From NCBI GenBank assembly GCA_050123415.1, contig JASFHE010000001.1, forward strand, positions 10,607 to 74,606: a stretch of 64,000 nt of DNA. Direction: 5' to 3'. The notes below the pieces were generated by a model, which saw only the letters and a list, made by a program, of their open reading frames with translations, did not search any database and was not told where the DNA came from. The DNA is from Desulfobacteraceae bacterium (GTDB lineage: Bacteria > Desulfobacterota > DSM-4660 > Desulfatiglandales > HGW-15). Shown in pieces: positions 3-61,108 of the stretch; position 1 is the stretch's first letter; every line of letters starts with the position of its first letter. The position numbers and the translations under genes are program-made.

Positions 3-863
3 CGTATAAGAACCGTAGCCGAAAGGACCGATAAATGGTTATTGGCCCGGCAGCGGAAACATGTCAAGATGGTAGAGAAAAGCGTGGAGAACTTGCAAAA
101 CAAGATTATAAACTCCGTGCAAACACTCTCTACCAAGCGAGGACAGCTTGAAGGTGTGCGTGTAAATCTAAAGCAAGCTCAGAAAGTACACAAGGATGTT
201 ATACGTCTTTTCGGTGATCAGTTCAGCCGTGACATGCGGCGTATGATTGATGACTTTAGTTCGGTGGAGAGTTTAATTGAATCGAGTTATTCCTATTTAG
301 GTGAGTCAGTAAAATTCACCGGGCTTGACCGTACAACTATGGACATTTTGAAAGATGGTTATTGGAGAGATTACTTGGCGATTGGTGATCAACAAAAAAA
401 TAAAGTTATCCAAGAGATATATAACCAAGTGATTGCCGGAGGAGAATTCTCTCAACTTGTTGGTTCGGTCGAGCAAGCACTCCTCGGAAGTAATCTTACC
501 GGTGTGACCGGGCGCCCGCTTGTAGGCTATGCGCGCCTGTATGCCCGGGATATGATAATGAATTTCCATAATGAGGTGAATATAAAAAAGGCAGAAGAAA
601 TTAATATTAAACACTTTCTTTATGTGGGAGATATTATTGCCACCACCCGACAGTTTTGCAAGACCCGTGTGGGAAAGTACTACACAAAGAATCAAATTCA
701 ATCATGGACTTACCGCTGGGCTGGTAAGAGCGGTCCCGCGTTCACTCATAGAGGCGGATGGAATTGTCGTCATCATTGGCAACCAATAAGACCAGAATGG
801 CTTGAGGGAAAGAAGAAATTAGATGTTGCCGATTGGAATCTTGAGAAAAGAGGGAATGGTTAA
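3..863 (+). CDS. head morphogenesis protein, Mu F / SPP1 gp7-like (5' end probably outside window)
   Basis: The frame is open from the window edge, with no stop between nt 3 and the TTG at 42. The C-terminal TTRQFCKTRVGKYY...GGWNCRHHWQPI resembles the conserved Cys...NCRC end of the Mu F/SPP1 gp7 minor head protein family. It sits at the start of a capsid module. Confidence 0.6.
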   Translation, partial: RIRTVAERTDKWLLARQRKHVKMVEKSVENLQNKIINSVQTLSTKRGQLEGVRVNLKQAQKVHKDVIRLFGDQFSRDMRRMIDDFSSVESLIESSYSYLGESVKFTGLDRTTMDILKDGYWRDYLAIGDQQKNKVIQEIYNQVIAGGEFSQLVGSVEQALLGSNLTGVTGRPLVGYARLYARDMIMNFHNEVNIKKAEEINIKHFLYVGDIIATTRQFCKTRVGKYYTKNQIQSWTYRWAGKSGPAFTHRGGWNCRHHWQPIRPEWLEGKKKLDVADWNLEKRGNG

Positions 864-1363: not shown

Positions 1364-1855
1364 ATGAAACTTGATGCAAATAGAAAAATTACTGACCATG
1401 ATTTAATGACTGGTATTGGAGAAGATGATCACCATAACCGGGGAACATCAGTTAAGGTTTTGATCAACTCCCAGTCAATATCTGCTCAATCTGCTTATGA
1501 AGTTCGGATCGATCTGGGAGCCAGTGGTTATCGGACATTCCGTGTTTTGTTACGGGGCAGTAGTAATGTTGATATCCAAGGTCACACCGGGGTTTTTGTA
1601 ATTGCCGGCGGGGCAAGCGAAGATTGCTCCGGAATTGGGATTGAACCCTATGGAGCAGCAGAGTATACAATTTCATATATGGGGGCTTATTCTCGGATTC
1701 ACGGAGACTCTTATTTATCTCCGATCGGTACCTTCGGTACAAATATAGCATTACGGGATGCCTATATCGATGATAACGAGGCGGTCCTTGAATTTTATAA
1801 TGCGTCAGTATCTACCCAGGATTTAAAAGTTTACGGGACATTAGTGGTGAAATAA
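1364..1855 (+). CDS. virion-module protein, DxHH paralog 2 of 3
   Basis: The track ORF starts at GTG 1358. ATG 1364 gives MKLDAN..., which aligns with the MRLDN/MRLKE N-termini of the paralogs. Motifs GEDDHHNRG and GDSYLSP. Confidence 0.6.
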   Translation: MKLDANRKITDHDLMTGIGEDDHHNRGTSVKVLINSQSISAQSAYEVRIDLGASGYRTFRVLLRGSSNVDIQGHTGVFVIAGGASEDCSGIGIEPYGAAEYTISYMGAYSRIHGDSYLSPIGTFGTNIALRDAYIDDNEAVLEFYNASVSTQDLKVYGTLVVK

Positions 1856-2379
1856 TGAGATTAAAAGAGTATAGGGAACATCCAGCAACACATGCAGCTT
1901 TGTCTAATGTTGGAATCGATCAACACCATGATCGTCCAGAGAATATTGAGGTTTCTAATACTTCTCTATTGGTTTATCCATTGCCGTCCGGGCCTTATAC
2001 ATGGGATATATCGGTCCCTTTGAATGCTAAGGTTGTTAAGTTTTCTTTTCGAAGCAATCATACGGTCGCCGAGGGAGGTGGTAAAGCCGGAGTTCATGGG
2101 ATAGCAACAAGAAATCAATTCGAAACAACTGTATTTTCTTTGGGTGGTCATGGCACAACTTCAATTACTTCTTACAATGCGGTTTATTCTAAAGTTGCCT
2201 CGGCTACGAATCTATCCCATAAGGTCTTTTCTCAAGCGGATACCGAAAGTGTCTGCCTAACAGATGCTTATCTAACATTAATATCTGGAACCGAAAGAGT
2301 TCTCAGAACAATCTGGACAAATTATGGGGGATCAATTGAGACCCTGAATTGCTGGGGAGAGGTTCAGGTTATCGGATGA
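1855..2379 (+). CDS. virion-module protein, DxHH paralog 3 of 3
   Basis: TAATG overlap with the upstream gene. MRLKEY...GIDQHHDRP and a C-terminal L..WGEVQV pattern, as in the paralogs. Confidence 0.6.
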   Translation: MRLKEYREHPATHAALSNVGIDQHHDRPENIEVSNTSLLVYPLPSGPYTWDISVPLNAKVVKFSFRSNHTVAEGGGKAGVHGIATRNQFETTVFSLGGHGTTSITSYNAVYSKVASATNLSHKVFSQADTESVCLTDAYLTLISGTERVLRTIWTNYGGSIETLNCWGEVQVIG

Positions 2380-3608
2380 AAGATAAATTAAAAGTATTGG
2401 CAATTTGTCAGGAAGATCCTGAATGGTTACTTGGAGGTATGGGTCGGCATCTACAAGAACTTTATAAAGCTATGGCCAAAAGGGAAGATGTTTCGGTGGA
2501 TTTATTAGTAGGAGGTCCATCTCATATCTCCTATGAATACAACGGTTTCCAAAAACACCATAGCCACAAATTATTGTGCTACAAACCGAAGGCAGCAAAT
2601 ATGGCAAGTCTCCTTATTACTGATATACAGCTTGCCACAACCCTAATGAAGTTAATTGCTGATGGGAATCGATGGGACCTTATTCATGTTCATGAATGGA
2701 ACTCAATCCAGGTTGCCCGTATGGCTCGGGAAGCATTGGATATTCCAATGGTGGGTACAATGCATCTTTGTATCACAAAGTTGATGGAAGAAGCTCACCA
2801 GGATCCGACGAAATTACGGGAACCGGATATCTATTTAATGCAACAGGAGGGTCATTTGATTGTGGATGTTGATGAATTAATTCTTTGTTCGCAGGCTTAT
2901 ATTGATATGGCCAGAAGAACATTCATGACCGACCGCCCAATCAACCTAATTTACAACGGCATTGATATGAAGAAGTGGAGTAAAGATAACGAGGCAGGGA
3001 TTGAAGTAAAAAAACATCTTTCAATTTGTACAGATAAACCAATCGCCTTGTATGTCGGTCGTATTGCTGAGATGAAGGGGATTCGTGATCTCCTTAAAGC
3101 AATAGAAATATGGGATGACTGTCCCTATATGTTTGTTTTGGCAGGCGAAGTTAACGCAAATAGTGAAGCGGATAGAGAAAATTGGGACGTAACAAGAAAA
3201 ATCAAAGAACTTGAAGAAATATGTCCTCAAAGAATACGGTGGGTAGGATTTCAAAACGACGATGATCTTAGAGGTCTTTATTCGCTTGCAGAAATAGGAA
3301 TTATGCCGTCTGTCCATGAACCATTTGGGATAGTTGCACTTGAATTTATGGCAACTGGTGTACCACTTATTTGTACCGAAGTTGGAGGTCTCGGTGAAAT
3401 AGTAATTGATGAAAATGGTAATGAATATGCGTTTATCATTGATCCTTGTTCTCCAGATCAGATAATAGAAGCTGCTAAACACCTACGTGATAATACTTGC
3501 GCGAAAGAGGAGCTGTGTAGAAATGGAATCAAGAGAACAACAAAGTTTACTTGGGAATGTGCAGCAGAACAAACAGTTGCGCTCTACAGAAAAACAATTT
3601 CAAAATAA
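2376..3608 (+). CDS. GT-B fold glycosyltransferase (GT4-like)
   Basis: ATG 2376 overlaps the upstream TGA (ATGA). The C-terminal HEPFGIVALEFMATGVPLICTEVGGLGEIV is the E-x-FG...E...G-x-P signature of group-1/GT4 glycosyltransferases. The N-terminal GGMGRH is glycine-rich. Confidence 0.75.
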   Translation: MKDKLKVLAICQEDPEWLLGGMGRHLQELYKAMAKREDVSVDLLVGGPSHISYEYNGFQKHHSHKLLCYKPKAANMASLLITDIQLATTLMKLIADGNRWDLIHVHEWNSIQVARMAREALDIPMVGTMHLCITKLMEEAHQDPTKLREPDIYLMQQEGHLIVDVDELILCSQAYIDMARRTFMTDRPINLIYNGIDMKKWSKDNEAGIEVKKHLSICTDKPIALYVGRIAEMKGIRDLLKAIEIWDDCPYMFVLAGEVNANSEADRENWDVTRKIKELEEICPQRIRWVGFQNDDDLRGLYSLAEIGIMPSVHEPFGIVALEFMATGVPLICTEVGGLGEIVIDENGNEYAFIIDPCSPDQIIEAAKHLRDNTCAKEELCRNGIKRTTKFTWECAAEQTVALYRKTISK

Positions 3609-5396: not shown

Positions 5397-5876
5397 ATGT
5401 ATTACAAACCTAAACATTTTGTTGTAGAAGAGATATTTCCTCCAGGAATTATTGCCGAACATAACTCTATTGGTAAACTTGATCAGATTTGGAGACTTAT
5501 GGATTGGAGAGTCCTTTGGACACAAGATCAACTCCGAGAGAGATATGGTTCAATGATTTGTAACGATTATTTGTGGGGCGGTAGTAATCAATACCGTGTC
5601 TACCGCCCGGCAATTGGTTTGATTGACTGGGATTATTTCAGAAGATTCCGGGAAGTCAAAGCTAAATGGTCTTCTTTTACTTCTCAGCACTGTTTTGGAC
5701 GTGCAAGTGATAGTAAGTTTAAGAAGGTAACAACGGAAGAAGTGCGCCAGGATATCAAAAGGAATCCGGACCACGAAGCATTTAGGTATATTACTGCTGT
5801 TGAGGATAAGGTCTCCTGGCTACATTTCGATACCCGCTCATGGAATCGAACCGAGAGCGGAATACTTTTTTTCTAA
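5397..5876 (+). CDS. peptidase M15-like cell wall hydrolase (D-Ala-D-Ala carboxypeptidase / L-Ala-D-Glu peptidase fold)
   Basis: AAGGAGG lies 8 nt upstream of ATG 5397. SQHCFGRASD (H-x-x-G-x-A-x-D) and WLHFD (H-x-D) match the zinc ligand motifs of the peptidase M15 family. Confidence 0.65.
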   Translation: MYYKPKHFVVEEIFPPGIIAEHNSIGKLDQIWRLMDWRVLWTQDQLRERYGSMICNDYLWGGSNQYRVYRPAIGLIDWDYFRRFREVKAKWSSFTSQHCFGRASDSKFKKVTTEEVRQDIKRNPDHEAFRYITAVEDKVSWLHFDTRSWNRTESGILFF

Positions 5877-27185: not shown

Positions 27186-27758
27186 ATGGCAATCAAGACA
27201 CCGAGGGAATATCGGCAGATGGAATTCAGGCAATTACTTTTCGAATTGGTATGCCTGCTCAAACCACATACTTATGTGGAGATTGGAGTAAAAGACGGGT
27301 GGACATTCAATAAGATTGCTCCACTTGTTGAACGCGCCGTTGGTGTGGATATTGTAGCGTCTCCAGTAGAAAGACTTCCACATGTTGAATTTATCCATGA
27401 TAATTCTGCCAGGTTTGCAAAAACATGGAAGGATCCAATCGATTTCCTTTTTATTGATGCATACCACGAATGTGAAGGAGTCTTACTTGATTTCTACCGT
27501 TTGCATCCTTTCGTTCGGCCAGAAACCGGAATGATTTTTCTCCATGATACATATCCTGTGAAACCGGAATTACTTCTTCCAGGTTATTGTCACAATGCAT
27601 GGAGAGCGGCAAAGACGATCCGGGAGAAGTTTGTTGAAGAATTTGAAATTGTTACACTCCCCGGTCCGTGGGCAGGCCTCTCAATACTTCGGAAATTGAA
27701 AGATGGCAGGCACGGGTGGATGGACAAAGATGCCTTCGCTGGAGGGAGAGGAAGATGA
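27186..27758 (+). CDS. class I SAM-dependent methyltransferase (Methyltransf_24-like)
   Basis: YVEIGVKDGWT (motif I), GVDI, and FLFIDAYHECEGVLLDF...GMIFLHD. Confidence 0.65.
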   Translation: MAIKTPREYRQMEFRQLLFELVCLLKPHTYVEIGVKDGWTFNKIAPLVERAVGVDIVASPVERLPHVEFIHDNSARFAKTWKDPIDFLFIDAYHECEGVLLDFYRLHPFVRPETGMIFLHDTYPVKPELLLPGYCHNAWRAAKTIREKFVEEFEIVTLPGPWAGLSILRKLKDGRHGWMDKDAFAGGRGR

Positions 27759-28897
27759 CTAAATTACTTTTTCTTTTTATGAGCCAAGGGGCAGCATCTC
27801 CTGGAACGACTAAACGGGTGTATCCAACAAATGATTGTGGAACAAAATATATGGATGCATTTGCAGGAGAAGGCTATTTCAAGATGCTGGATGTACTCCT
27901 CAAAAATAAAGTGATTGATGACTTGAAGATTTTCTTTGAGTCGAATGTCCAGCCCGGCATAGCGTCCTGGGTGAAGGGCCCTTCAACATATTGCGAAGTA
28001 ATTCCGGAGATTCGTTTTGTTGAGGAGTATATTGAGGAGGACACAATCATCTTTGTCCGCGGCGGGTTTAAACACTGGCATGATTTACTTTTGAAATACA
28101 AAAATAAAAATTGGCTTTTACTTTATGGTGCAAATACCGGAAGAGAAAGATGGACATGGTGGGATATTATTTTTGATGATATCTTGTGTAAAAATGAAAT
28201 TGATCGGCATGGAAGATATTGGTTTCCTTTTATCAAACCAATAAATGAGGAGATGTTTTTTCCGGAAGATACGATACGGCAGCAACCAATTCCTCAATGG
28301 GACTTTTGCATCGGAGCATCTCATATTCATGACAGGAAAGGACAATGGAGAATTTTTAACGCTATACTGGAATATAATAAAAAATATGGAGAACTTCATA
28401 CGATTATGCCTGGCGGACCGCGACGTGGATTGAAAACGCTTGAGATGATTAAAAATCTTCCGAATGCAAAGTATGTAGAAACGCCCGGTCATGTTCATCG
28501 AACCGAACTTCAGAGAATTTTTAATGATTCAAAATATTTTATCCACTTTGGTGCTCATGGACAAAATGACCGCGGTCCGATTGAGGCACTTGCATGTGGG
28601 ACACCTGTAGTAATTGGTTCTCCGAGTTATCATGCACCATTCTTATCTGATATATGTTACACGGGTTGCAATATTAATGATCCGGTTTCGATAGCAGAGA
28701 GTTTGAAGATATTACTTGAACGCTGGACAATTGAGGAGAAAAGTAAAACATATTGGAAATATAAGAAGAAAAGTGGATTCAATGAAATAATTATTCCAAG
28801 GATGATAATGCTATTTTCTCTCATAAAACACATGAAACCAACAATAAAGGCAAAACAACTTATAATGGAGGAGGTAATGAATCATGCGATCAGTTAG
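27755..28897 (+). CDS. probable GT-B-like glycosyltransferase
   Basis: ATG 27755 overlaps the upstream TGA (ATGA). The C-terminal YFIHFGAHGQNDRGPIEALACGTPVVIG resembles the GT-B C-terminal domain. Weaker than the other GT calls. Confidence 0.4.
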   Translation: MTKLLFLFMSQGAASPGTTKRVYPTNDCGTKYMDAFAGEGYFKMLDVLLKNKVIDDLKIFFESNVQPGIASWVKGPSTYCEVIPEIRFVEEYIEEDTIIFVRGGFKHWHDLLLKYKNKNWLLLYGANTGRERWTWWDIIFDDILCKNEIDRHGRYWFPFIKPINEEMFFPEDTIRQQPIPQWDFCIGASHIHDRKGQWRIFNAILEYNKKYGELHTIMPGGPRRGLKTLEMIKNLPNAKYVETPGHVHRTELQRIFNDSKYFIHFGAHGQNDRGPIEALACGTPVVIGSPSYHAPFLSDICYTGCNINDPVSIAESLKILLERWTIEEKSKTYWKYKKKSGFNEIIIPRMIMLFSLIKHMKPTIKAKQLIMEEVMNHAIS

Positions 28898-29510
28898 TAA
28901 AATGTATGGTGATAGTTTCTTCCATCGTAGGAAGAAGTTGATTTGGCGCGCTCCAATACTTTGTGAAATTATTAAAGAAATATTTCCTGGTGCAAAAAGT
29001 ATCATTGATGTTGGTTGCGCCATTGGAGAGTTTGTACATCAATTCCAAAAAATGGGGATATCTTCAGAAGGTATTGAGGGTAGTGAAAGTGCATTAAAGT
29101 ACGCATCTCCAGAGACCGGTATATCATTATGGGATATTAGAACACCATTACCTACCTCAAAAACCTGTATTGGTAAAACATGGAATTTGTGCATGTGTCT
29201 TGAAGTTGCAGAACATATCGAAGAGGAATATACAAATATATTTATTGATAATCTTTGCTTCTTATCAAATACTATTTTGATATCTGCTGCACCCCCAGGA
29301 CAACAAGGATACGGTCATTTTAATTGTCAAAAAATGGAATATTGGGAAATCAAATTCGGAATTAGAGACTACAGGAGAAGAGTTGAAAAAGAAAAGCGTT
29401 TTAAAAGTCTCCTTGAACCTTACAAGAGGAAGAAGGGTTTGAGTGGATATTATAACAATATCATGATTTATGAACATAATGATATTATATTGCATAAATA
29501 TTGGGGGTAA
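28884..29510 (+). CDS. class I SAM-dependent methyltransferase (Methyltransf_11/23-like)
   Basis: IIDVGCAIGEFV (motif I), GIEGSESA, and WNLCMCLEVAEHIEEEY. Confidence 0.7.
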   Translation: MRSVSKMYGDSFFHRRKKLIWRAPILCEIIKEIFPGAKSIIDVGCAIGEFVHQFQKMGISSEGIEGSESALKYASPETGISLWDIRTPLPTSKTCIGKTWNLCMCLEVAEHIEEEYTNIFIDNLCFLSNTILISAAPPGQQGYGHFNCQKMEYWEIKFGIRDYRRRVEKEKRFKSLLEPYKRKKGLSGYYNNIMIYEHNDIILHKYWG

Positions 29511-29511
29511 A

Positions 29512-30282
29512 ATGAATAAGGAAATATTTGATATTACTTGTACAGCAACACTTCGACCAGGACTCCTCGATAGAACACTTTCTTCATTTACAAAGAATTT
29601 ATTCAAGGAAAGGATATCTTGTGCAAGGCTTATTATTAATATTGATATGGCTGGTGCAGAAAAAAGCAGAGAAAAACAGAAATTGATTGATGTAATCAAT
29701 GTAATAGATAAATATCCTTTTTGCAGAAGAGAAATTAGGATTGGAAGAGAGCCGCATTTCCCAACAGCTTTTACTTGGTGTATGGATGAAGTCTACAGCA
29801 AGTATTTTTTTCATCTTGAGGAAGATTGGGAATTGCTTTTTCCTATCGATTTTGAAGCAATGTGGGGTTTACTTGACAAGTATGGAGACCTTGCCCACCT
29901 TCGATTATCGCAATTTACTTCCGAAGAGTTTCGGTGTAAAAATTGGAACAAGTTTCTTGTCTGGAACGGAGAATTCTTTGAAGTGCCGCTCGATGAAAAA
30001 TTGGTGATCGGATGGGCTGGCCATCCGTCGCTCAATCGATCATCTTTTATAAAAGACTGTCTACCATACATTGATCGAATGGCAAATCCCGAAAAGCAGA
30101 TCAAAGGCAAGATACATCCATGTATAACTCAATCAATTAATGCACACAGGTTTGGTTCATTTCATCCACAAAACTCGCCGAATTCAATTGTGGATATCGG
30201 GCGAGAGTGGATGGTCAATAATGGGTGGAGTAAAGCAGGCAATAAAGCCTGGTTCACCAATTGGGAAAGGAGTAATCAGTAA
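29512..30282 (+). CDS. hypothetical protein, possible GT-A-like enzyme
   Basis: ATG lies 1 nt after the upstream TAA. ITCTATLRPGLLDRTLSSF...ARLIINIDM...FFHLEEDWELLFP is loosely GT-A-like, with an acidic EED in place of DxD. Uncertain. Confidence 0.3.
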   Translation: MNKEIFDITCTATLRPGLLDRTLSSFTKNLFKERISCARLIINIDMAGAEKSREKQKLIDVINVIDKYPFCRREIRIGREPHFPTAFTWCMDEVYSKYFFHLEEDWELLFPIDFEAMWGLLDKYGDLAHLRLSQFTSEEFRCKNWNKFLVWNGEFFEVPLDEKLVIGWAGHPSLNRSSFIKDCLPYIDRMANPEKQIKGKIHPCITQSINAHRFGSFHPQNSPNSIVDIGREWMVNNGWSKAGNKAWFTNWERSNQ

Positions 30283-31322
30283 TGGATTTATCTATCATCA
30301 TTCCGTTTGTTGGAGAATACCCGCAAGTATTATGGACAATTCAATCGATTGCACAAGGCTTGATTGAAACGGAGATTGAGTTTGAAATTATTGCAGTGGA
30401 TAACTACTGCGAACAGGCTGTCCGTCAATGTAATGTGGCAACTCAGAAAGCAATTGACAAATTGAAACAGATTTACTTCAACGAAGGAAGAGAAATTGAG
30501 GCTTCCGATATGTTTGAAATCCATGACATGATCCCGCCAATTTATAAAAATAGAAGCGGAGAGGCAATCAAGGCTTGTGCGCGTGGGAATCCGTGGCTCC
30601 GTTATGTTGAATATCCTGACAGTTTATCACATTGGCAGGCAAAGCGTGTTGGTGTTCAAGAATCAGATGGAAAAGTTCTCCTGTTTGTTGATGCACATAC
30701 CATTCCGTCGGTTGATGCAATTGAAGAAATGTTTTTAGAATATACACGTGGATCATACAATGAAAATGGAACAATGCATTTACCTTTAACATACAAGATC
30801 CTTGAATGGCACCGATTGATCTACAAGTTTTTTGTTGAGAATGAATTTTTCTACAGTTATAAGTTTACTCCTTTCAGACAAGCCAAAGAGCCGTACGAGG
30901 TACAATGCATGTCAACTTGTGGCATGATGATCTCCAGAAGTATTTATGATCAACTCGGCGGCTGGCCAGCAACTCTTGGAGTTTATGGTGGCGGAGAAAA
31001 TTTCATGAATTATACGCTGGCAGTATGCGGTTTTAAGAAGTGGATATATCCGCATGGGACGCTTTTTCATCATGCGGATAGACGTGATTACCATTGGTAT
31101 GGTGATAATTTGATTTATAACAGGATGCTTGCTCATTATCTTTTCGGGGGTAAAGACTTGTTGGCGAAGTTTACTTCTATTTGTAAAGGTAGACCATCTA
31201 CTCTGCAAATGTTTGCAGAGATGGCCCTTAAGGAAGGTTTCGATCAACGGCAGCAAATCAAATCAATTCAAAAAATGACTATTGAGGAATGGGCGGAGAA
31301 ATGGAGAGAAAATGAACTTTAA
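30282..31322 (+). CDS. GT-A glycosyltransferase resembling polypeptide GalNAc-transferases (GT27/GT2, DxH type)
   Basis: - LSIIIPFVGEYPQVLWTIQSI and EIIAVDNYC form the GT-A N-terminal region.
- KVLLFVDAHTIP carries the D-x-H metal motif, as in LTFLDSHCE.
- GVYGGGENFMNYTLAVCGFKKWIYPHGTLFHHADR parallels the Gal/GalNAc-T motif [32 protein letters not shown]. Confidence 0.6.
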   Translation: MDLSIIIPFVGEYPQVLWTIQSIAQGLIETEIEFEIIAVDNYCEQAVRQCNVATQKAIDKLKQIYFNEGREIEASDMFEIHDMIPPIYKNRSGEAIKACARGNPWLRYVEYPDSLSHWQAKRVGVQESDGKVLLFVDAHTIPSVDAIEEMFLEYTRGSYNENGTMHLPLTYKILEWHRLIYKFFVENEFFYSYKFTPFRQAKEPYEVQCMSTCGMMISRSIYDQLGGWPATLGVYGGGENFMNYTLAVCGFKKWIYPHGTLFHHADRRDYHWYGDNLIYNRMLAHYLFGGKDLLAKFTSICKGRPSTLQMFAEMALKEGFDQRQQIKSIQKMTIEEWAEKWRENEL

Positions 31323-48348: not shown

Positions 48349-51300
48349 TTATCTCCTTCTCTTCCTATTATATACTGTTTTATCAGAAAGTCCGGGCGCT
48401 AATATCCGCATTAATCGGAAGAAATTTTTCATCCCTGCGATATAAAATGATTTATTATCAGGATTATGGAATGTTGCTGCTGGATGTAAACACCAAGCAA
48501 TCCAACAACCATACTTTTCATTCCATGTAGTTCTGCCGCTCATTCCGGTAATACCAGATTTTATTCCTTCAAAGAATTGAAGAGAAGTGTTACCAAATGC
48601 AAGAATTAAAACGGGTTTAATTTGCTTTAATTCATCATTAAGATATCTGGAAGTACATTCTTGAATTTGCTTTGAGTTTGGTTTTCTACTTTTGCTTGGA
48701 TAGCATTTATTGATATTGGTTACATGAAATAATGATCGTTCATATCCTTTTCGATTTATATCTCCCCAGAGTAACCCTCCTGCCGGTGCTTCTTCGTAAA
48801 AACCCCAACCAAATTGGTCTTCCTTTGGACCAGGTGCTTCTCCAGCTAATACTATATTATATTTTCCTGGGCTGGGCATAACAGGTCGATGGCATTCATT
48901 TCTCAATTTGCAAGCAGTACAGGATTGTAGTTCATAATATCCATATTTCTTGAATCTTCTCCTTTTAACTGCATTGCCGCCAAGTTTTTTAAGTTCTTTT
49001 GTCTCCCCATTCAAAGTATTATCAAGTCGATCCAAACGGATACTACCTCCAAAGAGATTATAAAGATTTTTGTAATTCTCTTTTGGATTAGAAACCACTC
49101 TAAAATCAAAGTATTCACGCATTTCTTCGGTAATTGTTGTGTCAGTTGGATCATATGCCTTGATGGCATCGAGTTTCTTTCCCAGATCACCAGGATGTCT
49201 TTTTATCTTTTTAACTTTCATTTTATTTTCCTTATTAAAGAATTTAGTAATTCCAGGATCATCGTCTTTTATTCCACCACCTCTTGCTGCCTCAACTGCT
49301 TTGACAGGTCCAAGTCCTCCAACTTCTTTAAATGGAATAAAAAGCATATTATCACGCGCAACCCACTTGGTAGCATGGCTGATACCAATCTTCGGCAGTC
49401 GCATTACAAGTCCGAGCCGATATGCTTCTTCCACAATCTCTCTTTTTTTCTCTTTTGCTCCAAATGTTAATGATGCACAAATAAACTCTGTCGGATAGTA
49501 ATGCTTTATCCACATACACCACATTCCAAGGATTGCATATTCCACAGCATGGGCCCGGTTGAAACCATATCGTGACCACTTTTGCAAACCAGCCCAGAAT
49601 TGCGTTGCTTCACGTTCTGAGAATATCTTCGTTTTCCGGCAACCGCGCATGAACTTCCGTTCGAACTTCTTAAATTCTTTGGCATCACGTTTCTTACCAA
49701 TAATTTTTCGGATTTTATCTGCCGTTTCATATGGTAGACCAGCAACCTTATTAATTACTGCCATAATCTGCTCTTGAAAGACAAGAAGTCCGTAGGTATC
49801 AGAAGTTAATTCTTCATAAACATGGTGCATTTTGTCCCAGTGTTCTCCACGTTTTCTCTTTATATAATTATCGGTCATTCCCGATTCAGTTGGGCCGGGT
49901 CGTACGAGAGAGATTGCATGGGCTATATGATTAAACTCTTCCACACCCATGTCTTTGATCAAATTTGTCATTGCCCAAGTATTTATTTGAAATGCTCCTA
50001 CCGTATTGCCCTCACTTATCTCCTTTAGCACTTGTGGGTTTTCAAGTTCAAGGAGATCAAGTTCGATGTTTTTGTTGTGGTTCTGTTTAATGAGTTCGAT
50101 GGCATGGGATAGAATAGAGAGGAGTTTTAATCCAAGGGAGTCAAGTTTCATCAAACCGACAAATTCTGTATCATCCTTCTCCCAATTAATGTTTCTTCCT
50201 TTTTTGGTATCGATAAGAACACAACGACCAGACTTGCCGATTTCTTGCATGGAAACAATGATCGCCGCGGCGTGCTTTCCATAGTTCTTTACCTGCCCTG
50301 CAAGTTGTTTTGCATACTTAATTATCCTCGGATAATTCTCTGCAAACTCTTGACAGACCTGGTATTCATCAATAGCGTTTTGAATCTTTTCCGCTTCGGT
50401 ACCAGGGAACTTATCATCAATCATTTTTGTAAAAGAGTTCGCTTCACCTTCGCTAACCTCAAAAACTCTGGCGACGTCTTTGACTGCCGCTTTTGCTTTC
50501 ATTCTATTGAAAGAAGAAACACCGGAAATATTTCCTTCCCCATATAATTCTTCCAAATGTTCCTTAATAAGGTGGCGCTTTGTGTCTTCAAAATCAATAT
50601 CAATATCCGGATAGTCAATACGATCTTTGTTAATAAATCGATCAAAAATCAAATTGTGTTTTATTGGATCAACAGAAGTAATTCCGAGGAGATAAGCCAT
50701 TAAACTTCCGCCAACAGAACCGCGGCCGGGTCCAATTAAGATTCCTTGTTTCTTGCACCAACTGCATAGTTCCCATACAATTAGAAAGTATCGTGTAAAC
50801 TTTTTCTCCACGATAAGGTCGTATTCCATCTTTAATCGCTCTTTGTATTCAGTATTATGGGAAACACTTCGATGGAATCGATCCCTATAACCGTCCACGC
50901 AAAGTTGCCAAAGTGTTTTGTTTTCTTTGTCTGGATCAATACCTGGGACATGTGGAAGTTTAATGTCTCGTTTTGGGATTCTGTAGTCCGAACATTTTTC
51001 TGCAATCTCTAAAGTATTAATAAGGAATTTTTCATTATATATTCCAACCGCTTTCATTGCTCGGATCATTTCGTTAGTTTTACGAAGATGAAGTCCGTGG
51101 AATCCAAAACTCCATCTTTTAGGATCATTCCATGTTACCTTACGCTGAATTGCGAGAAGTACATCATGGACTTTCCAATCAGACCGATCAATATAATGGC
51201 AGTCATTAGTGACGATTACTTTTACTCTTGTTTCTTTGGCAAGTTTCAGGATTCTTTTGTTATGCTCCGCCTGGATTTTAATATCATGAGGCATTAATTC

Positions 51301-51783
51301 CAGATATAGATCATCTTTCATTCTTTTATGGAGTTTATGAAAGAAATCAATACCGCCTTCAACATTAATGAAACTCATAACACAAGCAGTTCCAATAACC
51401 AGTCCGCGTCTGTATTTCATCAAAGTTTTGAAATCAATTCTTGGTTTGTAGTGATAGCCCTCCAGATTTGCTATGGTTAGCATTTTGCAGAGATTTCGAA
51501 ATCCGGTGTTATTTTTTATCCATAAAGAGACGTGACCTCGGACCGCTTTCTTCTTCCATTCATTGACCAGGTAACCTTCGCAACCGAGAATTGGTTTGAT
51601 TCCTGCCTGGTCACATGCTTTCTGGAATTTAATAAGTCCATCGATATTACCGTGATCAGTACAGGCCAAGAATTTCTGACCATTAGCCACGGCCTTCTCC
51701 GCATATTTGGACGCAGAGCCGAATCCATCAAGTTGAGAATATTCGGAGTGGAGATGTAAATGGCAAAAGTCTTCTTTATTCAT
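48349..51783 (-). CDS. dnaE: DNA polymerase III alpha subunit (C-family) fused to a C-terminal uracil-DNA glycosylase family 4-like domain
   Basis: - Polymerase part: PHP domain HLHLHSEYSQLDG, GPGRGSVGGSLMAYLLGITSVDPI...DIDIDF, RPGP, and FNRAHAVEYAILGMW.
- C-terminal about 200 aa (nt 48352-48960): CTACKLRNEC, LAGEAPGPKED, NKC-x16-C, and CLHPAAT.
- Start: GGAG lies 9 nt upstream of ATG 51783; the track start is 51831. Confidence 0.85.
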   Translation of the reverse strand: MNKEDFCHLHLHSEYSQLDGFGSASKYAEKAVANGQKFLACTDHGNIDGLIKFQKACDQAGIKPILGCEGYLVNEWKKKAVRGHVSLWIKNNTGFRNLCKMLTIANLEGYHYKPRIDFKTLMKYRRGLVIGTACVMSFINVEGGIDFFHKLHKRMKDDLYLELMPHDIKIQAEHNKRILKLAKETRVKVIVTNDCHYIDRSDWKVHDVLLAIQRKVTWNDPKRWSFGFHGLHLRKTNEMIRAMKAVGIYNEKFLINTLEIAEKCSDYRIPKRDIKLPHVPGIDPDKENKTLWQLCVDGYRDRFHRSVSHNTEYKERLKMEYDLIVEKKFTRYFLIVWELCSWCKKQGILIGPGRGSVGGSLMAYLLGITSVDPIKHNLIFDRFINKDRIDYPDIDIDFEDTKRHLIKEHLEELYGEGNISGVSSFNRMKAKAAVKDVARVFEVSEGEANSFTKMIDDKFPGTEAEKIQNAIDEYQVCQEFAENYPRIIKYAKQLAGQVKNYGKHAAAIIVSMQEIGKSGRCVLIDTKKGRNINWEKDDTEFVGLMKLDSLGLKLLSILSHAIELIKQNHNKNIELDLLELENPQVLKEISEGNTVGAFQINTWAMTNLIKDMGVEEFNHIAHAISLVRPGPTESGMTDNYIKRKRGEHWDKMHHVYEELTSDTYGLLVFQEQIMAVINKVAGLPYETADKIRKIIGKKRDAKEFKKFERKFMRGCRKTKIFSEREATQFWAGLQKWSRYGFNRAHAVEYAILGMWCMWIKHYYPTEFICASLTFGAKEKKREIVEEAYRLGLVMRLPKIGISHATKWVARDNMLFIPFKEVGGLGPVKAVEAARGGGIKDDDPGITKFFNKENKMKVKKIKRHPGDLGKKLDAIKAYDPTDTTITEEMREYFDFRVVSNPKENYKNLYNLFGGSIRLDRLDNTLNGETKELKKLGGNAVKRRRFKKYGYYELQSCTACKLRNECHRPVMPSPGKYNIVLAGEAPGPKEDQFGWGFYEEAPAGGLLWGDINRKGYERSLFHVTNINKCYPSKSRKPNSKQIQECTSRYLNDELKQIKPVLILAFGNTSLQFFEGIKSGITGMSGRTTWNEKYGCWIAWCLHPAATFHNPDNKSFYIAGMKNFFRLMRILAPGLSDKTVYNRKRRR

Positions 51784-52003
51784 ATTTTTTTTCACTCCAT
51801 AATAAACAGGGGCCTTGTCCTGAACCAACAATATACCATCCTATTTTTTTATGCCTTCCGATGCCAATAAGTGGCTCGGAGTTATCAACTACTTCCTTGC
51901 ATTCTTTTGGCATTATGTCATAAAAATGTTTCCATAATTCAGAAGGAAGCATTATTTTTTCAAGTTCTAAATATCCAGTTTCTTTTGTTCTCATAAGAAG
52001 CAT
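51776..52003 (-). CDS. hypothetical protein
   Basis: 75-aa ORF. Confidence 0.4.
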   Translation of the reverse strand: MLLMRTKETGYLELEKIMLPSELWKHFYDIMPKECKEVVDNSEPLIGIGRHKKIGWYIVGSGQGPCLLWSEKKYE

Positions 52004-57962: not shown

Positions 57963-59102
57963 CTAATCGTCGTCGGACGCGATGGAGACTTTTCCATCAG
58001 ACAGATCACCGGAGTTTTTATACAGGATATTGATGGCACAAGATTTGGCAATAGATTTGGCGATGGTGCGAACGGCCATGTTGATGCATTTGTCGGCGTC
58101 TTTTTTCTTCTCTTTGCCGATCAGTTTGGCAATATCCATGATGGACATTTCACTTTTCTGGAGTTTTTCATAGATCTTGGCCGGTAGTGAGTCTTTCCGC
58201 ATTCCTTTCGGAAGTTTCCCACTTTTGTCTTTATCGGCCGCCTTGCCCTTGCCTTTACCACCTTTATTGGCTTTATTGGATTTGGTGGATTCGGCCTTCT
58301 CTTCCATGGCGTCCAGGATTTCCTCGATGGCATCTTCGGACTCATCCTCCCAATCTTTTTTCTTGGGGAGGTCTACTTCAAGACCATTTTCTTTCACGAA
58401 GGCCTTGACCTCTTTATACTCCATGTCGCCGAGTTCTTCTTCCAGGGTGTCGCGGTCGAATTTGCCACCGGCATCGCCGGCATCACCCGATTTGGCCTTC
58501 TCTTCCATGGCGTCCAGGATTTCTTCGATGATGTCTTCGGATTCATCTTCCCAGGCCTTTTTCTTGGGCATATCGATGTCAAGGCCGTTGTCTTTGATAT
58601 AGGCCTTAACCTCTTTATACTCCATGTCGGTCAGCGTTTCTTCCAGTTCATCCCGGTCGAAATCGCCGGCGGCGCTCTTGGCATCTTTCGTACCACCCTT
58701 GGCATTGCCGCTCTTGGATGACAGTTTCATGATTTCATCGATAACTTTGGAGAGATTTTTCTTGGTCACTTTGGTCTTGATTTCAAGATCATTTTCTTTG
58801 ATGTAGGCTCTGACCTCCTTGATTTCCATGTCTTCCAGCTCATCACGGAGGTCATCGCCGCCGGCTTCGCCTTTAGATTCGCCGTCGAATTGATCCATGA
58901 CGCGGACATAAAATTTGATAATCTTTTTGTCCACTTCATCAGTCTTGCCATCGTCATCAATTTCTTCCATGGCGTTCATGAAATCCTCGGCGAGTTCTTC
59001 CGAATCATCGGTATCGGTATCGACCGACTCGTCGGTCAGTTCCAACTTGTTCAACGCCTTTGCATTTTTCTTTAATTCTTCCAATGTGACTTTTTTTGCC
59101 AT
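57963..59102 (-). CDS. highly acidic protein with three HeH/SAP-like repeats and a basic C-terminal domain
   Basis: The repeated unit D(M/L)E(Y/I)KEV(K/R)A(Y/F)(I/V)K(E/D)NGL(D/E)(I/V)D(M/L)PKKK-WEDESED-IEEILDAMEEKA occurs twice nearly identically and once degenerate. The C-terminus is Lys-rich, followed by MSIMDIAKLIGKEKKKDADKCINMAVRTIAKSIAK. Confidence 0.6.
   Translation of the reverse strand: MAKKVTLEELKKNAKALNKLELTDESVDTDTDDSEELAEDFMNAMEEIDDDGKTDEVDKKIIKFYVRVMDQFDGESKGEAGGDDLRDELEDMEIKEVRAYIKENDLEIKTKVTKKNLSKVIDEIMKLSSKSGNAKGGTKDAKSAAGDFDRDELEETLTDMEYKEVKAYIKDNGLDIDMPKKKAWEDESEDIIEEILDAMEEKAKSGDAGDAGGKFDRDTLEEELGDMEYKEVKAFVKENGLEVDLPKKKDWEDESEDAIEEILDAMEEKAESTKSNKANKGGKGKGKAADKDKSGKLPKGMRKDSLPAKIYEKLQKSEMSIMDIAKLIGKEKKKDADKCINMAVRTIAKSIAKSCAINILYKNSGDLSDGKVSIASDDD
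58293..58694 (-). repeat. two tandem, roughly 201-nt near-identical units inside the acidic protein gene
   Basis: ggccttctcttccatggcgtccaggatttc recurs at 58293 and 58494. A third degenerate unit follows up to about 58900. Confidence 0.8.
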
Positions 59103-59212
59103 TGTTTTTTCTCCTTTAGTATTTAGTTACGTGTAAATGAATTCAACTTCAAATATTAATGAAAAGTATCTCACCTCCTCTCCCACTTCTCACTTCCAAA
59201 AATTCATGAATT

Positions 59213-59377
59213 TGGTAGGGTAGATGGGATTCGAACCCACAAAAACATAATTTCCGCACCCTTTACTCCAGCAGAGGTGGAAAAATAACCACATAACTGG
59301 CCGCGCTGGTAGCAGTAATTATGTCGCGTTTTACCGCTGACACAAAAGCCGCCTTTACCATTTTTGGCAACTACCCC
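59213..59377 (-). ncRNA. tRNA-like structured RNA, about 165 nt (not a standard tRNA)
   Basis: Minus-strand 3' end: GTGGG-TTCGAAT-CCCAT (T arm, 59240-59224), then CTACCCT-A-CCA (59223-59213). The complementary GGGGTAG lies at 59377-59371, followed by TT GCC-AAAAATGGTAAA-GGC, a type II-like D arm with U8, A14, GG and A21. About 110 nt separate the D arm from the T arm, where 22-39 nt are expected. Confidence 0.45.
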
Positions 59378-59424
59378 ACAATTTCCGTGATTTCAAAGAA
59401 CAATGAACTTTCACTTACAAATAT

Positions 59425-59433
59425 ATTATAACA
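59425..59433 (-). promoter_or_regulatory. candidate extended -10 promoter TGTTATAAT upstream of the tRNA-like element
   Basis: The minus strand reads ccaTGtTATAATat about 45 nt upstream of the tRNA-like 5' end, in the gap after the helicase gene. Confidence 0.3.
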
Positions 59434-59455: not shown

Positions 59456-61108
59456 CTAATCATCGGTCCTTTTGGTTTTACAAACTTGGTAATCCTTGGA
59501 TTTATCCCACCACCATTCTGAGTCAAGAATGACATTACCGGTTTCCAGGCGTTGTGTCATCATAATTTCCGCTGAATGTAACCGTCCTTTGCGCCTAAAG
59601 AGCATCCCAAGACGTTCCAACCCGAGTTCGTATTCAAGTAATGTTTTATTTAAAGTTAAGCGCATATCAATATGAGCATCTTTAGTTTTACTTTCACTCG
59701 TATCCATAACATCCAAGGAACGTTTATTTCTTGCTGCTTTTACCCCTTGATCAGCCACGAAAATGGCACAATCCAATTCCTGAGATAAACCAGCGATTTT
59801 CTTCCAATTATAATCAATATTAAAACGATCCATTAAAACACCTTGAATTGGTGCCATAATATCTGGATAATCGATTGTTATACCATGAGGTTTAAAATTC
59901 TTTTTTCTTATATACCGATAAATGTATTCAATAACATCATCCAATGTAGCAGAAAATCTTGGAAAACATTTTATCCGATAATTTCCGATTCCGTACGGTT
60001 GTTTTGCCTTTATCCCGGAATATAATCGTCTTTCTGTCATTACTTTAATGCGTTTTGTTTTGAACCAGATTGCTGGAATAAACCTCTTCGTCCGTTTGGC
60101 ATTTGATCTTGTTCTTTCTTCCCTGCATTTTGTACATACCTGCCAATGTTTGTTTTCATCATATGCCGCAATATCTTCCGGATAGAGAAGTAAAGCACTT
60201 TTATTTAATGGCTTTCTAAGTACTTCGCAAGTTCCATGTTGATTATTTTGACAATCAAAAATTGGAAAGACAATTTTTCCAGCATGGTCTTCATCTATTG
60301 CAAATCCTGTTTCACGCTGCCAAAAACGTTCCTCTTTATCTTCTGTTGGCATTTCAAGATTGATATCAAGCCATTTTAATTTATTATAAATCACTCCAGT
60401 CCGTCCAATTTCCTGAGCAGTCCAAGTTTTACCTGATTTCTCGATTCCTGTTATCGCATATAATTTTGATTTACATATCGGCCCCATAAACTCACCGACG
60501 GCGCCTGGCATTCTAAATAAAACATTTTGATCTTTTTCTTCGGAGTAATATTTCCGAACCGCTTGGATTGAGCCCGGTTTTGCTGTACCAAGATCTGGAT
60601 CCTCTTCATCGTCAGATATCTGCGTAAATGAATCAACTACTTTTCCAATATCATCAACTTCATTTCTCTCCAATTTCTTTGTCAATTGGTCAATAACTAA
60701 CTCTGCCTCCATTCTTTTCTGGAAGCGTGGTATAACTTCCTTTTTTATAAATTCAGGATCAATTCCGTCTTCTTTGAATTTTGAAAATTCAGTAGCGAGT
60801 CTATCTAAATACTCTGCAATTATATCCGCTGTCTCCTTATTCATTGCCTGTTTATTATAATTATAAACTTCTTGTATAGTTTGTTTTGGTGCGCGTTCAT
60901 ATTCTTTGAAATATCGTACCAACCATCGGAATACATGTTGAAAGTAAAGCCCAAAATGCTTCGTTTTTATCTGACCAGATTTATACTTCCGATAGATATA
61001 TTGCATGATTTCACTATTCATAATCATGTGGCTGAGGATTAGCCATTCATCCTCTGGTTTTATTTCGATATGTTCAATCAGGTTAGAAAGTTTCTCTTTA
61101 GTAATCAT
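59456..61108 (-). CDS. DnaB-family replicative helicase with Cys-rich insertion
   Basis: LYAITGIEKSGKTWTAQEI (Walker A), GITIDYPDIM (Walker B-like), LDCAIFVADQGVKAARN (Q-x-x-R-like), and a DnaB-N-like N-terminus. The insertion is FDCQNNQHGTC...WQVCTKC. Confidence 0.65.
   Translation of the reverse strand: MITKEKLSNLIEHIEIKPEDEWLILSHMIMNSEIMQYIYRKYKSGQIKTKHFGLYFQHVFRWLVRYFKEYERAPKQTIQEVYNYNKQAMNKETADIIAEYLDRLATEFSKFKEDGIDPEFIKKEVIPRFQKRMEAELVIDQLTKKLERNEVDDIGKVVDSFTQISDDEEDPDLGTAKPGSIQAVRKYYSEEKDQNVLFRMPGAVGEFMGPICKSKLYAITGIEKSGKTWTAQEIGRTGVIYNKLKWLDINLEMPTEDKEERFWQRETGFAIDEDHAGKIVFPIFDCQNNQHGTCEVLRKPLNKSALLLYPEDIAAYDENKHWQVCTKCREERTRSNAKRTKRFIPAIWFKTKRIKVMTERRLYSGIKAKQPYGIGNYRIKCFPRFSATLDDVIEYIYRYIRKKNFKPHGITIDYPDIMAPIQGVLMDRFNIDYNWKKIAGLSQELDCAIFVADQGVKAARNKRSLDVMDTSESKTKDAHIDMRLTLNKTLLEYELGLERLGMLFRRKGRLHSAEIMMTQRLETGNVILDSEWWWDKSKDYQVCKTKRTDD

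Follow-up and report, generated by a model that had tools for sequence, protein, structure and literature searches.

A candidate tRNA-Leu-derived, non-decoding tRNA-like RNA gene in the leader of a phage gene downstream of the replicative helicase

For the species 1 and species 2 RNAs of phage T4, the annotation goes no further than "small stable RNA", and to our knowledge no function has been assigned to either. The transfer-messenger RNA (tmRNA) of mycobacteriophage DS6A, which has no coding sequence (CDS) and consists of the tRNA-like domain only, is reported to inhibit the host tmRNA (PMC11915505). The YrlA Y RNAs use a tRNA top half outside decoding and are a functional analogue of the RNA proposed here (PMC4201824). 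In this study, we analysed a tRNA-like element of 165 nt on the minus strand (59377-59213) of a 64,000-nt stretch of contig JASFHE010000001.1, positions 10,607 to 74,606. The whole stretch is called the window below; it is the DNA of a tailed phage, with the tape-measure and major head proteins on the plus strand. The recorded length of its contig is 83,343 bp. We tentatively take the element for a tRNA-Leu-derived, non-decoding tRNA-like RNA gene that was gained by one phage lineage as a discrete unit. Related sequences are cited by our own handles (L and P numbers).

Among the systems compared, the T4 species 1 RNA (rnaC, 139 nt; NC_000866, 70908-71046) is the closest to the element in overall plan. 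Both have a terminal acceptor-like stem, a canonical T arm beside its 3' strand (GGGUUCGAAUCCC in rnaC) and two extra long hairpins, which is the plan of an informal class of phage RNAs of ~140 nt for which there is no model. The resemblance is one of plan only, with no sequence homology beyond the T loop. The T4 RNA lies at the end of a tRNA cluster; its acceptor is imperfect, a D arm is not clearly recognisable and the annotated span encodes no CCA, whereas the element is solitary and has a perfect acceptor stem, a perfect D arm and an encoded CCA. The z-scores of the folds are -4.6 for rnaC and -3.0 for the element. The CDS-less tmRNA forms (DS6A, jakobid mitochondria, some plastids) share with the element a tRNA top half without decoding capacity. 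They are ~65 nt long, with a G3-U70 alanine identity and no D stem, while the element has 165 nt, G3-C70, a leucine-type top half and a full D arm. The bacterial and phage YrlA RNAs are noncoding RNAs of ~100-160 nt in which mimics of the acceptor, T and D arms are joined to a long helix, as in the element. Their termini lie in the Ro60-binding stem and their gene stands beside rsr (Ro60), whereas the termini of the element form the acceptor end. No Y RNA match was found in Rfam, and no Ro60 (TROVE) protein among the ~46 open reading frames (ORFs) scanned. We conclude that the element belongs to none of the tmRNA, Y RNA or T4 species 1 families.

The order of parts was read from the sequence, with element position i corresponding to window coordinate 59378 - i. 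It is GGGGUAG-UU-GCC-AAAAAUGGUAAA-GGC-G, 104 nt, and UUUUU-GUGGG-UUCGAAU-CCCAU-CUACCCU-A-CCA. The 5' acceptor strand GGGGUAG (GGGGTAG in DNA, 59371-59377) pairs with the 3' strand CUACCCU (59223-59217) through a G1-U72 wobble and six Watson-Crick pairs. The discriminator A73 and the encoded CCA complete the 3' end (59216-59213; whole 3' block 59213-59223). U8 and U9 precede the D arm (59351-59368), which consists of GCC, the 12-nt loop AAAAAUGGUAAA (AAAAATGGTAAA in DNA) and GGC; it carries A14, A15, G18G19 and A21, is followed by G26 (59350), and resembles the D arms of class II tRNA-Leu in L166 and L075. The T arm GUGGG-UUCGAAU-CCCAU (59224-59240) is identical to that of tRNA-Leu(UAA) of T5-like phages, and directly before it stands a 5-nt variable loop UUUUU (59241-59245) whose U48 is able to form a Levitt pair with A15. 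All nucleotides of the tRNA tertiary contacts are present (U8-A14, A15-U48, G18G19 against U55C56, T54-A58). The acceptor, U8, D arm, T arm, A73 and CCA had been proposed in the initial annotation of this DNA, and each was found on the minus strand where it had been placed. In the D-arm region an alternative 6-bp/4-nt hairpin, UUGCCA-AAAA-UGGUAA, is possible. Since its acceptor/T stack is 7/5, we do not assign the element a tRNA-Sec-like geometry with a 6-bp D stem and a 4-nt loop.

A composite query was used to judge whether such a top half could arise by chance. It asked for a 5-bp T stem and a UUCRANY loop, followed by 7 nt and NCCA; in addition, a 7-bp partner containing no more than one G-U pair had to lie 30-229 nt upstream of the T stem. 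It matched once in the window and in none of 300 dinucleotide shuffles, and the element is therefore not regarded as a chance match; the T arm with CCA alone occurred in 1 of the 300 shuffles. Other T-loop-like strings in the window (1637-1647 and 5842-5852) are antisense inside ORFs and were rejected as chance matches. No further copy of the element was found in the window by blastn.

Compared with a canonical tRNA, the acceptor stem, A73, CCA, T arm and D arm are all as expected; what is missing is a 5-bp/7-nt anticodon arm after position 26, and the length lies outside ~70-95 nt. The initial annotation had reported that no such arm could be built, and we likewise found none after G26. In place of the 17-nt anticodon arm, between G26 and the variable loop, stands a body of 104 nt (59246-59349) that is similar to nothing searched. 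Its arm 1 is the bulged hairpin GUC(A)GCG-GUAAAA-CGCGAC (59323-59341), which can be extended to 59345-59319 (10 bp) and then competes with the closing helix of arm 2. Arm 2, including this helix, spans 59245-59325. The closing helix has 9 bp (59325-59317 with 59253-59245) around an 8-bp core, ACAUAAUU/AAUUAUGU, and above it follow CUGC/GCGG, ACC/GGU, CCAGC/GCUGG and GUGG/CCAC with the cap loop UUAUUUUU. The 8-bp helix, the two nested helices CCAGC/GCTGG and GTGG/CCAC and the arm 1 hairpin had been noticed before, and all of them recur in the RNAfold minimum-energy structure. The whole RNA reaches -58.5 kcal/mol, with the z-score of -3.0 taken over 200 dinucleotide shuffles. Folded alone, the body reaches -33.3 kcal/mol (z = -2.2). 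The acceptor/T helix and the D-loop/T-loop elbow would fold as in tRNA, with the two-hairpin domain replacing the anticodon arm. In such a fold an anticodon could not be presented at the right distance, and the RNA would be unable to decode.

A 33-codon ORF runs through the body (59362-59261, minus strand; AUG at element position 16, MVKAAFVSAVKRDIITATSAASYVVIFPPLLE, stop UAA) and is probably a chance ORF in an AT-rich region. An internal CUACCA at 59312-59307 (minus strand) repeats the 3' end of the element. Just upstream of the T arm, AGGGUG(c)G could serve as a second 5' acceptor strand and would give a 50-nt minihelix (59262-59213, minus strand). This alternative pairing (AGGGTG in DNA) had also been pointed out before; a covariance model of the related tRNA-Leu genes prefers the minihelix with the proximal strand (29.2 bits).

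The element lies between the DnaB-like helicase gene (59456-61108, minus strand) and a gene for a 379-aa protein of unknown function (57963-59102, minus strand), and is codirectional with both. In L005, a Logan contig whose helicase is 87% identical, the same promoter and downstream leader are present and the element is not. The stretch missing there runs from 2 nt before G1 to CCA. Both flanks in the window align to one L005 segment, GGAAATTATGGATATTTTG, and the unit is thus bracketed by an imperfect duplication of ~16 nt. Its left copy is GAAATCACGGAAATTGT (59378-59394, minus strand), and its right copy, AAATTCATGAATTTTTG (59197-59212, minus strand), overlaps the last A of CCA. The gap from the helicase to the next gene is 353 nt in the window versus 180-200 nt in L005, L007, L182-L184, the P0007 contig and L185. 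The element is missing at the same locus in L001, L005-L008 and L182-L185; L001 has a different small ORF at its position. No tRNA was found in the loci of these relatives, and in 158 kb the covariance model of the related tRNA-Leu family matched only the window. An independent JGI contig, L009, whose helicase is 98% identical, ends inside the element; it shares the flank and includes the initial 23 nt of the element. These 23 nt show one change, A17 to U, which falls in the D loop under both folds. Because an independent contig carries its start, the element is not an assembly artefact. The data suggest that it is a lineage-specific, discrete insertion of ~165 nt whose borders coincide with the predicted RNA ends. 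The span from G1 to CCA (59213-59377) is also exactly the span covered by the Rfam tmRNA alignment and by ARAGORN with introns allowed. According to the initial annotation, a lack of conserved paired segments in relatives would speak against a functional RNA; this applies in part, in that the relatives are without the element altogether.

An extended -10 promoter element, TGTTATAAT, is predicted from the sequence at 59425-59433 on the minus strand, ~48 nt upstream of G1. It is kept in L005, which is without the element, and in L009, which has it. This indicates that the promoter belongs to the leader of the downstream gene and predates the insertion, and that the element stands inside that leader. 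We propose that the insertion landed in the 5' leader of the gene that follows the replicative helicase and that TGTTATAAT drives a transcript starting ~40 nt upstream of the element. By the general rules of tRNA processing, the 7-bp acceptor stacked on the 5-bp T stem would be a substrate of RNase P, cut at G1. Trimming of the 3' side to the encoded CCA would then release the 165 nt as a stable RNA and leave the downstream mRNA shortened. Since the insertion ends at the mature RNA ends and is flanked by the ~16-nt duplication, a mature RNA with a CCA end could even have been the template from which the unit was copied into the genome; we regard this as a more remote variant. The leader also contains a purine-rich block, GGGAGAGGAGGUGAG (59160-59185, minus strand), with a perfect Shine-Dalgarno-like GGAGGUG ~75 nt upstream of the real start codon. 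No start codon follows this GGAGGUG. The block is conserved in L005, and arm 2 holds the partly complementary CCACCUCU.

Sequence comparison points to tRNA-Leu as the source of the top half. Among 50,697 phage records, blastn found a match for the 3' 41 nt only, namely tRNA-Leu(UAA) of T5-like phages (85-88% identity). Class-I-shaped tRNA-Leu(UAA/CAA/UAG) genes with G1-U72, A73 and encoded CCA form a family that came up in pattern scans. Within it, tRNA-Leu(UAA) of L048 and L003 is the closest to both halves of the element, with the same acceptor GGGGTAG/CTACCCT and the same D stem GCC/GGC. The phage tRNA-Leu(UAA) genes with G1-U72 and A73 (T5-like L010; metagenome and virome loci L003, L048 and L015) have a (near-)identical acceptor and the same D stem, T arm, U-rich variable loop and CCA. 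They are ordinary tRNAs of 76-78 nt with a 5-bp/7-nt anticodon arm (CUUAAAA), and the element has 104 nt instead of this arm. Such class-I-shaped tRNA-Leu(UAA) of 76-78 nt, with a short variable loop, G1-U72 or A1-U72, A73, encoded CCA and the invariant loop CUUAAAA, is widespread in T5-like phages and many metagenome contigs (L003, L010, L013, L015, L017, L023, L027, L036, L048, L056, L079, L085, L178).

The limitation of the blastn match to the 3' 41 nt would also fit an integration-site relic, of attP or attL/R type, in which only the 3' ~45 nt were copied from a tRNA of the host or of a phage, while the match of GGGGTAG is coincidental. A 7-nt partner with at most one G-U pair within 300 nt is expected by chance in ~8% of cases by our own arithmetic, and some metagenome contigs, such as L037, do contain genuine 3' fragments of this tRNA type. 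However, the 5' 28 nt form a complete D arm with U8 and G26 that matches tRNA-Leu of L048 and L003. The indel edges relative to L005 fall at G1 and CCA, not at the edge of a 3' fragment, and the coincidence of the borders with the predicted RNA ends is a strong argument against a coincidental 5' partner. In addition, there is no integrase among the scanned ORFs, the phage looks lytic, and the exact 28-nt 3' end is absent from all 185,579 species genomes in which a tRNA source was sought. The attP reading, one of three offered by the initial annotation, is the least probable of all the accounts considered here, and we give it hardly any credence.

The L037 fragment (~565-612, minus strand) ends in the same CTACCCTACCA as the window element. 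It is one of several isolated tRNA 3' fragments of ~48 nt, from the anticodon loop to CCA, that stand beside unrelated GC-rich coding sequence (also L033/L047 and L127) and look like integration-site (att) remnants.

The identity elements of leucyl-tRNA synthetase (LeuRS) were compared with the element. Leucine identity consists of A73 and the core U8-A14, A15-U48, G18-U55 and G19-C56, and LeuRS does not need the anticodon arm; removal of the entire anticodon stem-loop from Aquifex aeolicus tRNA-Leu lowers LeuRS affinity only 2.5-fold (PMC2377443). Type I tRNA-Leu is described as chargeable by LeuRS (PMC6614811). By its sequence, the element holds all of these identity nucleotides, and leucine charging is plausible. 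The RNA may be leucylated and may occupy the tRNA enzymes that read the top half without entering translation, which is the weakest step of the proposed mechanism. We consider it possible but unlikely that a chargeable, leucine-accepting top half with a non-decoding body, released from the mRNA leader by RNase P, acts as a decoy or sink or as an extra-ribosomal leucine donor. The targets of such a decoy or sink would be host factors that read tRNA: LeuRS, CCA-adding or modification enzymes, EF-Tu, tRNA-directed defence nucleases or aminoacyl-transferases.

The standard tRNA, tmRNA and Rfam scans all miss the element, which marks a blind spot of these methods. Over the whole window, ARAGORN at default settings reported no tRNA and no tmRNA, and Rfam gave no match at gathering thresholds. 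With introns allowed at the default threshold, ARAGORN called a tRNA-Gln(CUG) of 97 nt with a 68-nt intron. An intron-containing tRNA that is spliced to a decoding tRNA could take this form, or that of a tRNA-Leu(UAA) with an insert of ~62 nt. A manual parse of the latter kind has the stem ACAUA/UAUGU and an insert of ~62 nt between U34 and A35, the removal of which leaves the loop AUUAAAU with the anticodon UAA. The closest relatives have this same anticodon, UAA; in this parse U is the last nucleotide of the 5' exon and G that of the insert, and the insert site is presumably that of the group I intron of cyanobacterial tRNA-Leu. Nevertheless, when the top half was kept and the middle 104 nt were shuffled, ARAGORN made intron-tRNA calls in 138 of 300 controls (46%). 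The call is thus uninformative about the body and reflects the strong top half. The Gln(CUG) parse has an anticodon stem with 3/5 G-U pairs, C37 and a 24-nt variable region without a hairpin, and the UAA parse leaves 25 nt unexplained between G26 and the stem. In a third, equally forced parse, 6 nt of CUUAAAA would survive as a remnant in the loop of arm 1, G-UAA-AA. A body that is not a tRNA is expected to behave in this way, allowing three anticodon parses of which none is clean.

The properties of the insert also speak against splicing. With 62-68 nt, the insert lacks the length of a group I intron (whose P3-P9 core typically takes ~200 nt or more) or of a group II intron, and at E<=10 there was no Rfam match to Intron_gpI, another intron or a ribozyme. 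No bulge-helix-bulge was seen, the only interruptions of the predicted helices being 1-nt bulges or 1x1 loops; both the small size and this absence had already been remarked in the initial annotation. The host is bacterial by the replication genes, and the scanned ORFs include neither an RNA ligase nor a splicing endonuclease. The interrupted tRNA that the annotation had suggested therefore fares poorly, with no anticodon arm after G26, no intron family and an ARAGORN call matched by the controls, and we hold it to be improbable.

In a relaxed Rfam search of 901 nt, the sole relevant match was tmRNA (RF00023), which aligned end to end with the element (59213-59377; 11.2 bits, E = 0.033). A miniature tmRNA, or a CDS-less tRNA-like domain that interferes with host trans-translation as in phage DS6A (PMC11915505), would agree with this best family match and with the presence of acceptor, T arm and CCA. 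The body also contains an open frame of 24 codons, GCG...UAA. However, the score lies far from the gathering score of 47 bits and derives only from acceptor stem, T arm and CCA, and in the alignment the central 265 model positions are replaced by 65 nt. The tmRNA mode of ARAGORN (-m) returned nothing at default and only implausible calls at a threshold of 70%. Alanine charging of tmRNA requires G3-U70; in the element, position 3:70 is G-C and the only wobble is G1-U72. The full canonical D arm is unlike tmRNA geometry, the putative tag ends in ...PPLLE and is unlike known degradation tags, and there are no pseudoknots. We consider a tmRNA-like role very improbable.

Searches for a second example of the element in viral (including a protein-based scan), metagenome and genome collections (IMG/VR, JGI, GTDB) found none. 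Megablast of the 2-kb neighbourhood against INPHARED phages gave no match, and no close relatives of the 379-aa downstream protein were found. In the viral collection, the 3'-end pattern with Ns matched three ordinary tRNAs only. The gapped full-length pattern had no match in IMG/VR or JGI metagenomes, nor had the 5'-end pattern and a generalised D-arm/T-arm pattern in viral collections, nor the arm 1 and arm 2 patterns in viral and genome collections. The 104-nt body had no match in the window, in the phage records or, by exact sub-patterns, in viral and genome collections. When the pattern was made very general, with GGGG and, after 120-150 nt, the T arm and CCCTACCA, it matched 83 metagenome and 87 genome loci. 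After filtering by acceptor pairing, these 170 loci were rejected as ordinary tRNAs, tRNA 3' fragments or the unrelated, odd L120. L120 lies at ~2985-3099 (plus strand) in an Actinomycetota metagenome-assembled genome (CAVRGA010000001.1) and is a tRNA-like sequence of ~115 nt with a normal D arm UAGCUCAAGAGGAUAGAGC, a T arm and ACCA. It has ~40 extra nt at the place of the anticodon arm and a C1xU72 mismatch, and is unrelated in sequence to the window element.

Several of these results weigh against a dedicated non-decoding RNA. As no homologue was found, covariation and conservation give no support for selection on the body or on the RNA; the scans demand exact matches to fixed motifs, so that diverged relatives could be missed. 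The z-score of the body is only moderately better than that of shuffles, and the body has two nearly isoenergetic folds, with either the extended arm 1 or the 9-bp closing helix. The second acceptor strand and the internal CUACCA may be traces of rearrangement in the origin of the element. LeuRS substrates do not usually have G1-U72, and a body of this bulk could collide with the enzyme.

The element may instead be a functionless relic, that is, a phage gene of tRNA-Leu(UAA) type whose anticodon region was wrecked by insertion or rearrangement and which is now a neutral passenger of the leader, maybe still transcribed and processed. We believe this to be a serious possibility, nearly as likely as the non-decoding RNA. 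The restriction to one narrow lineage, with five relatives lacking the element, agrees with it, as do the missing homologues in IMG/VR, JGI metagenomes and GTDB genomes, the three ad hoc anticodon parses, the apparent scrambling suggested by CUACCA and the second acceptor-like strand, and the modest structure of the insert. On the other hand, the top half is undecayed, with no mismatch in the acceptor, T and D stems and with the tertiary-pair nucleotides intact. The body is ordered, and the 9-bp helix that closes it stands at the very point from which the anticodon stem would project. The element is also kept across ~5% intergenic divergence between the window and L009, with the sole change in a loop, although only 23 nt can be compared. 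Of the three readings in the initial annotation, the tRNA-like noncoding RNA fits best, by the unit borders, the canonical top half and the promoter upstream; the intron and attP readings are poorly supported. The element is best classed among the loosely defined stable RNAs of phages that resemble tRNA, or else as the wreck of a tRNA-Leu gene. It is a clear case of a foreign body attached to a perfect tRNA top half and gained inside an mRNA leader. If expressed and charged, the non-decoding RNA would be a tractable model of phage tRNA mimicry outside decoding, including enzyme sinks, defence decoys and mRNA processing driven by RNase P. If it is merely a broken tRNA, it would be an ordinary by-product of phage tRNA gene turnover.

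The minus-strand replication module around the element encodes, in addition to the helicase, a Toprim primase, a sliding clamp, a clamp loader, RecA, an SbcCD-like pair, a dCMP deaminase and a thymidylate synthase. Replication genes of the DnaB-like helicase and DNA polymerase III (Pol III) alpha type suggest that the host is a bacterium. The phage looks lytic, since no integrase was found in the scanned ORFs and it encodes a Pol III alpha, a helicase-primase, a clamp and a clamp loader of its own. The same scan revealed no RNA ligase, RtcB, splicing endonuclease, Ro60 (TROVE), SmpB or aminoacyl-tRNA synthetase. A free-standing HNH endonuclease with NUMOD4 (PF07463 and PF13392; 55212-55700, minus strand), likely a homing endonuclease, lies between the clamp-loader gene and its neighbours. 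Its presence indicates that the region accepts mobile insertions.

Two further groups of genes were observed. The Pol III alpha protein (48349-51831, minus strand) has 1160 aa with PHP, DNA_pol3_alpha and finger domains, and is fused at its C-terminus to a domain of the uracil-DNA glycosylase superfamily. The same fusion is found in the relatives L182-L184 and the P0007 contig. Among the structural genes on the plus strand are three glycosyltransferase-like ORFs and one weakly methyltransferase-like ORF with a Pfam score under the curated cutoff (together 2349-3608, 27668-28897, 28884-29510 and 30282-31322). These products could modify the virion or the host surface.

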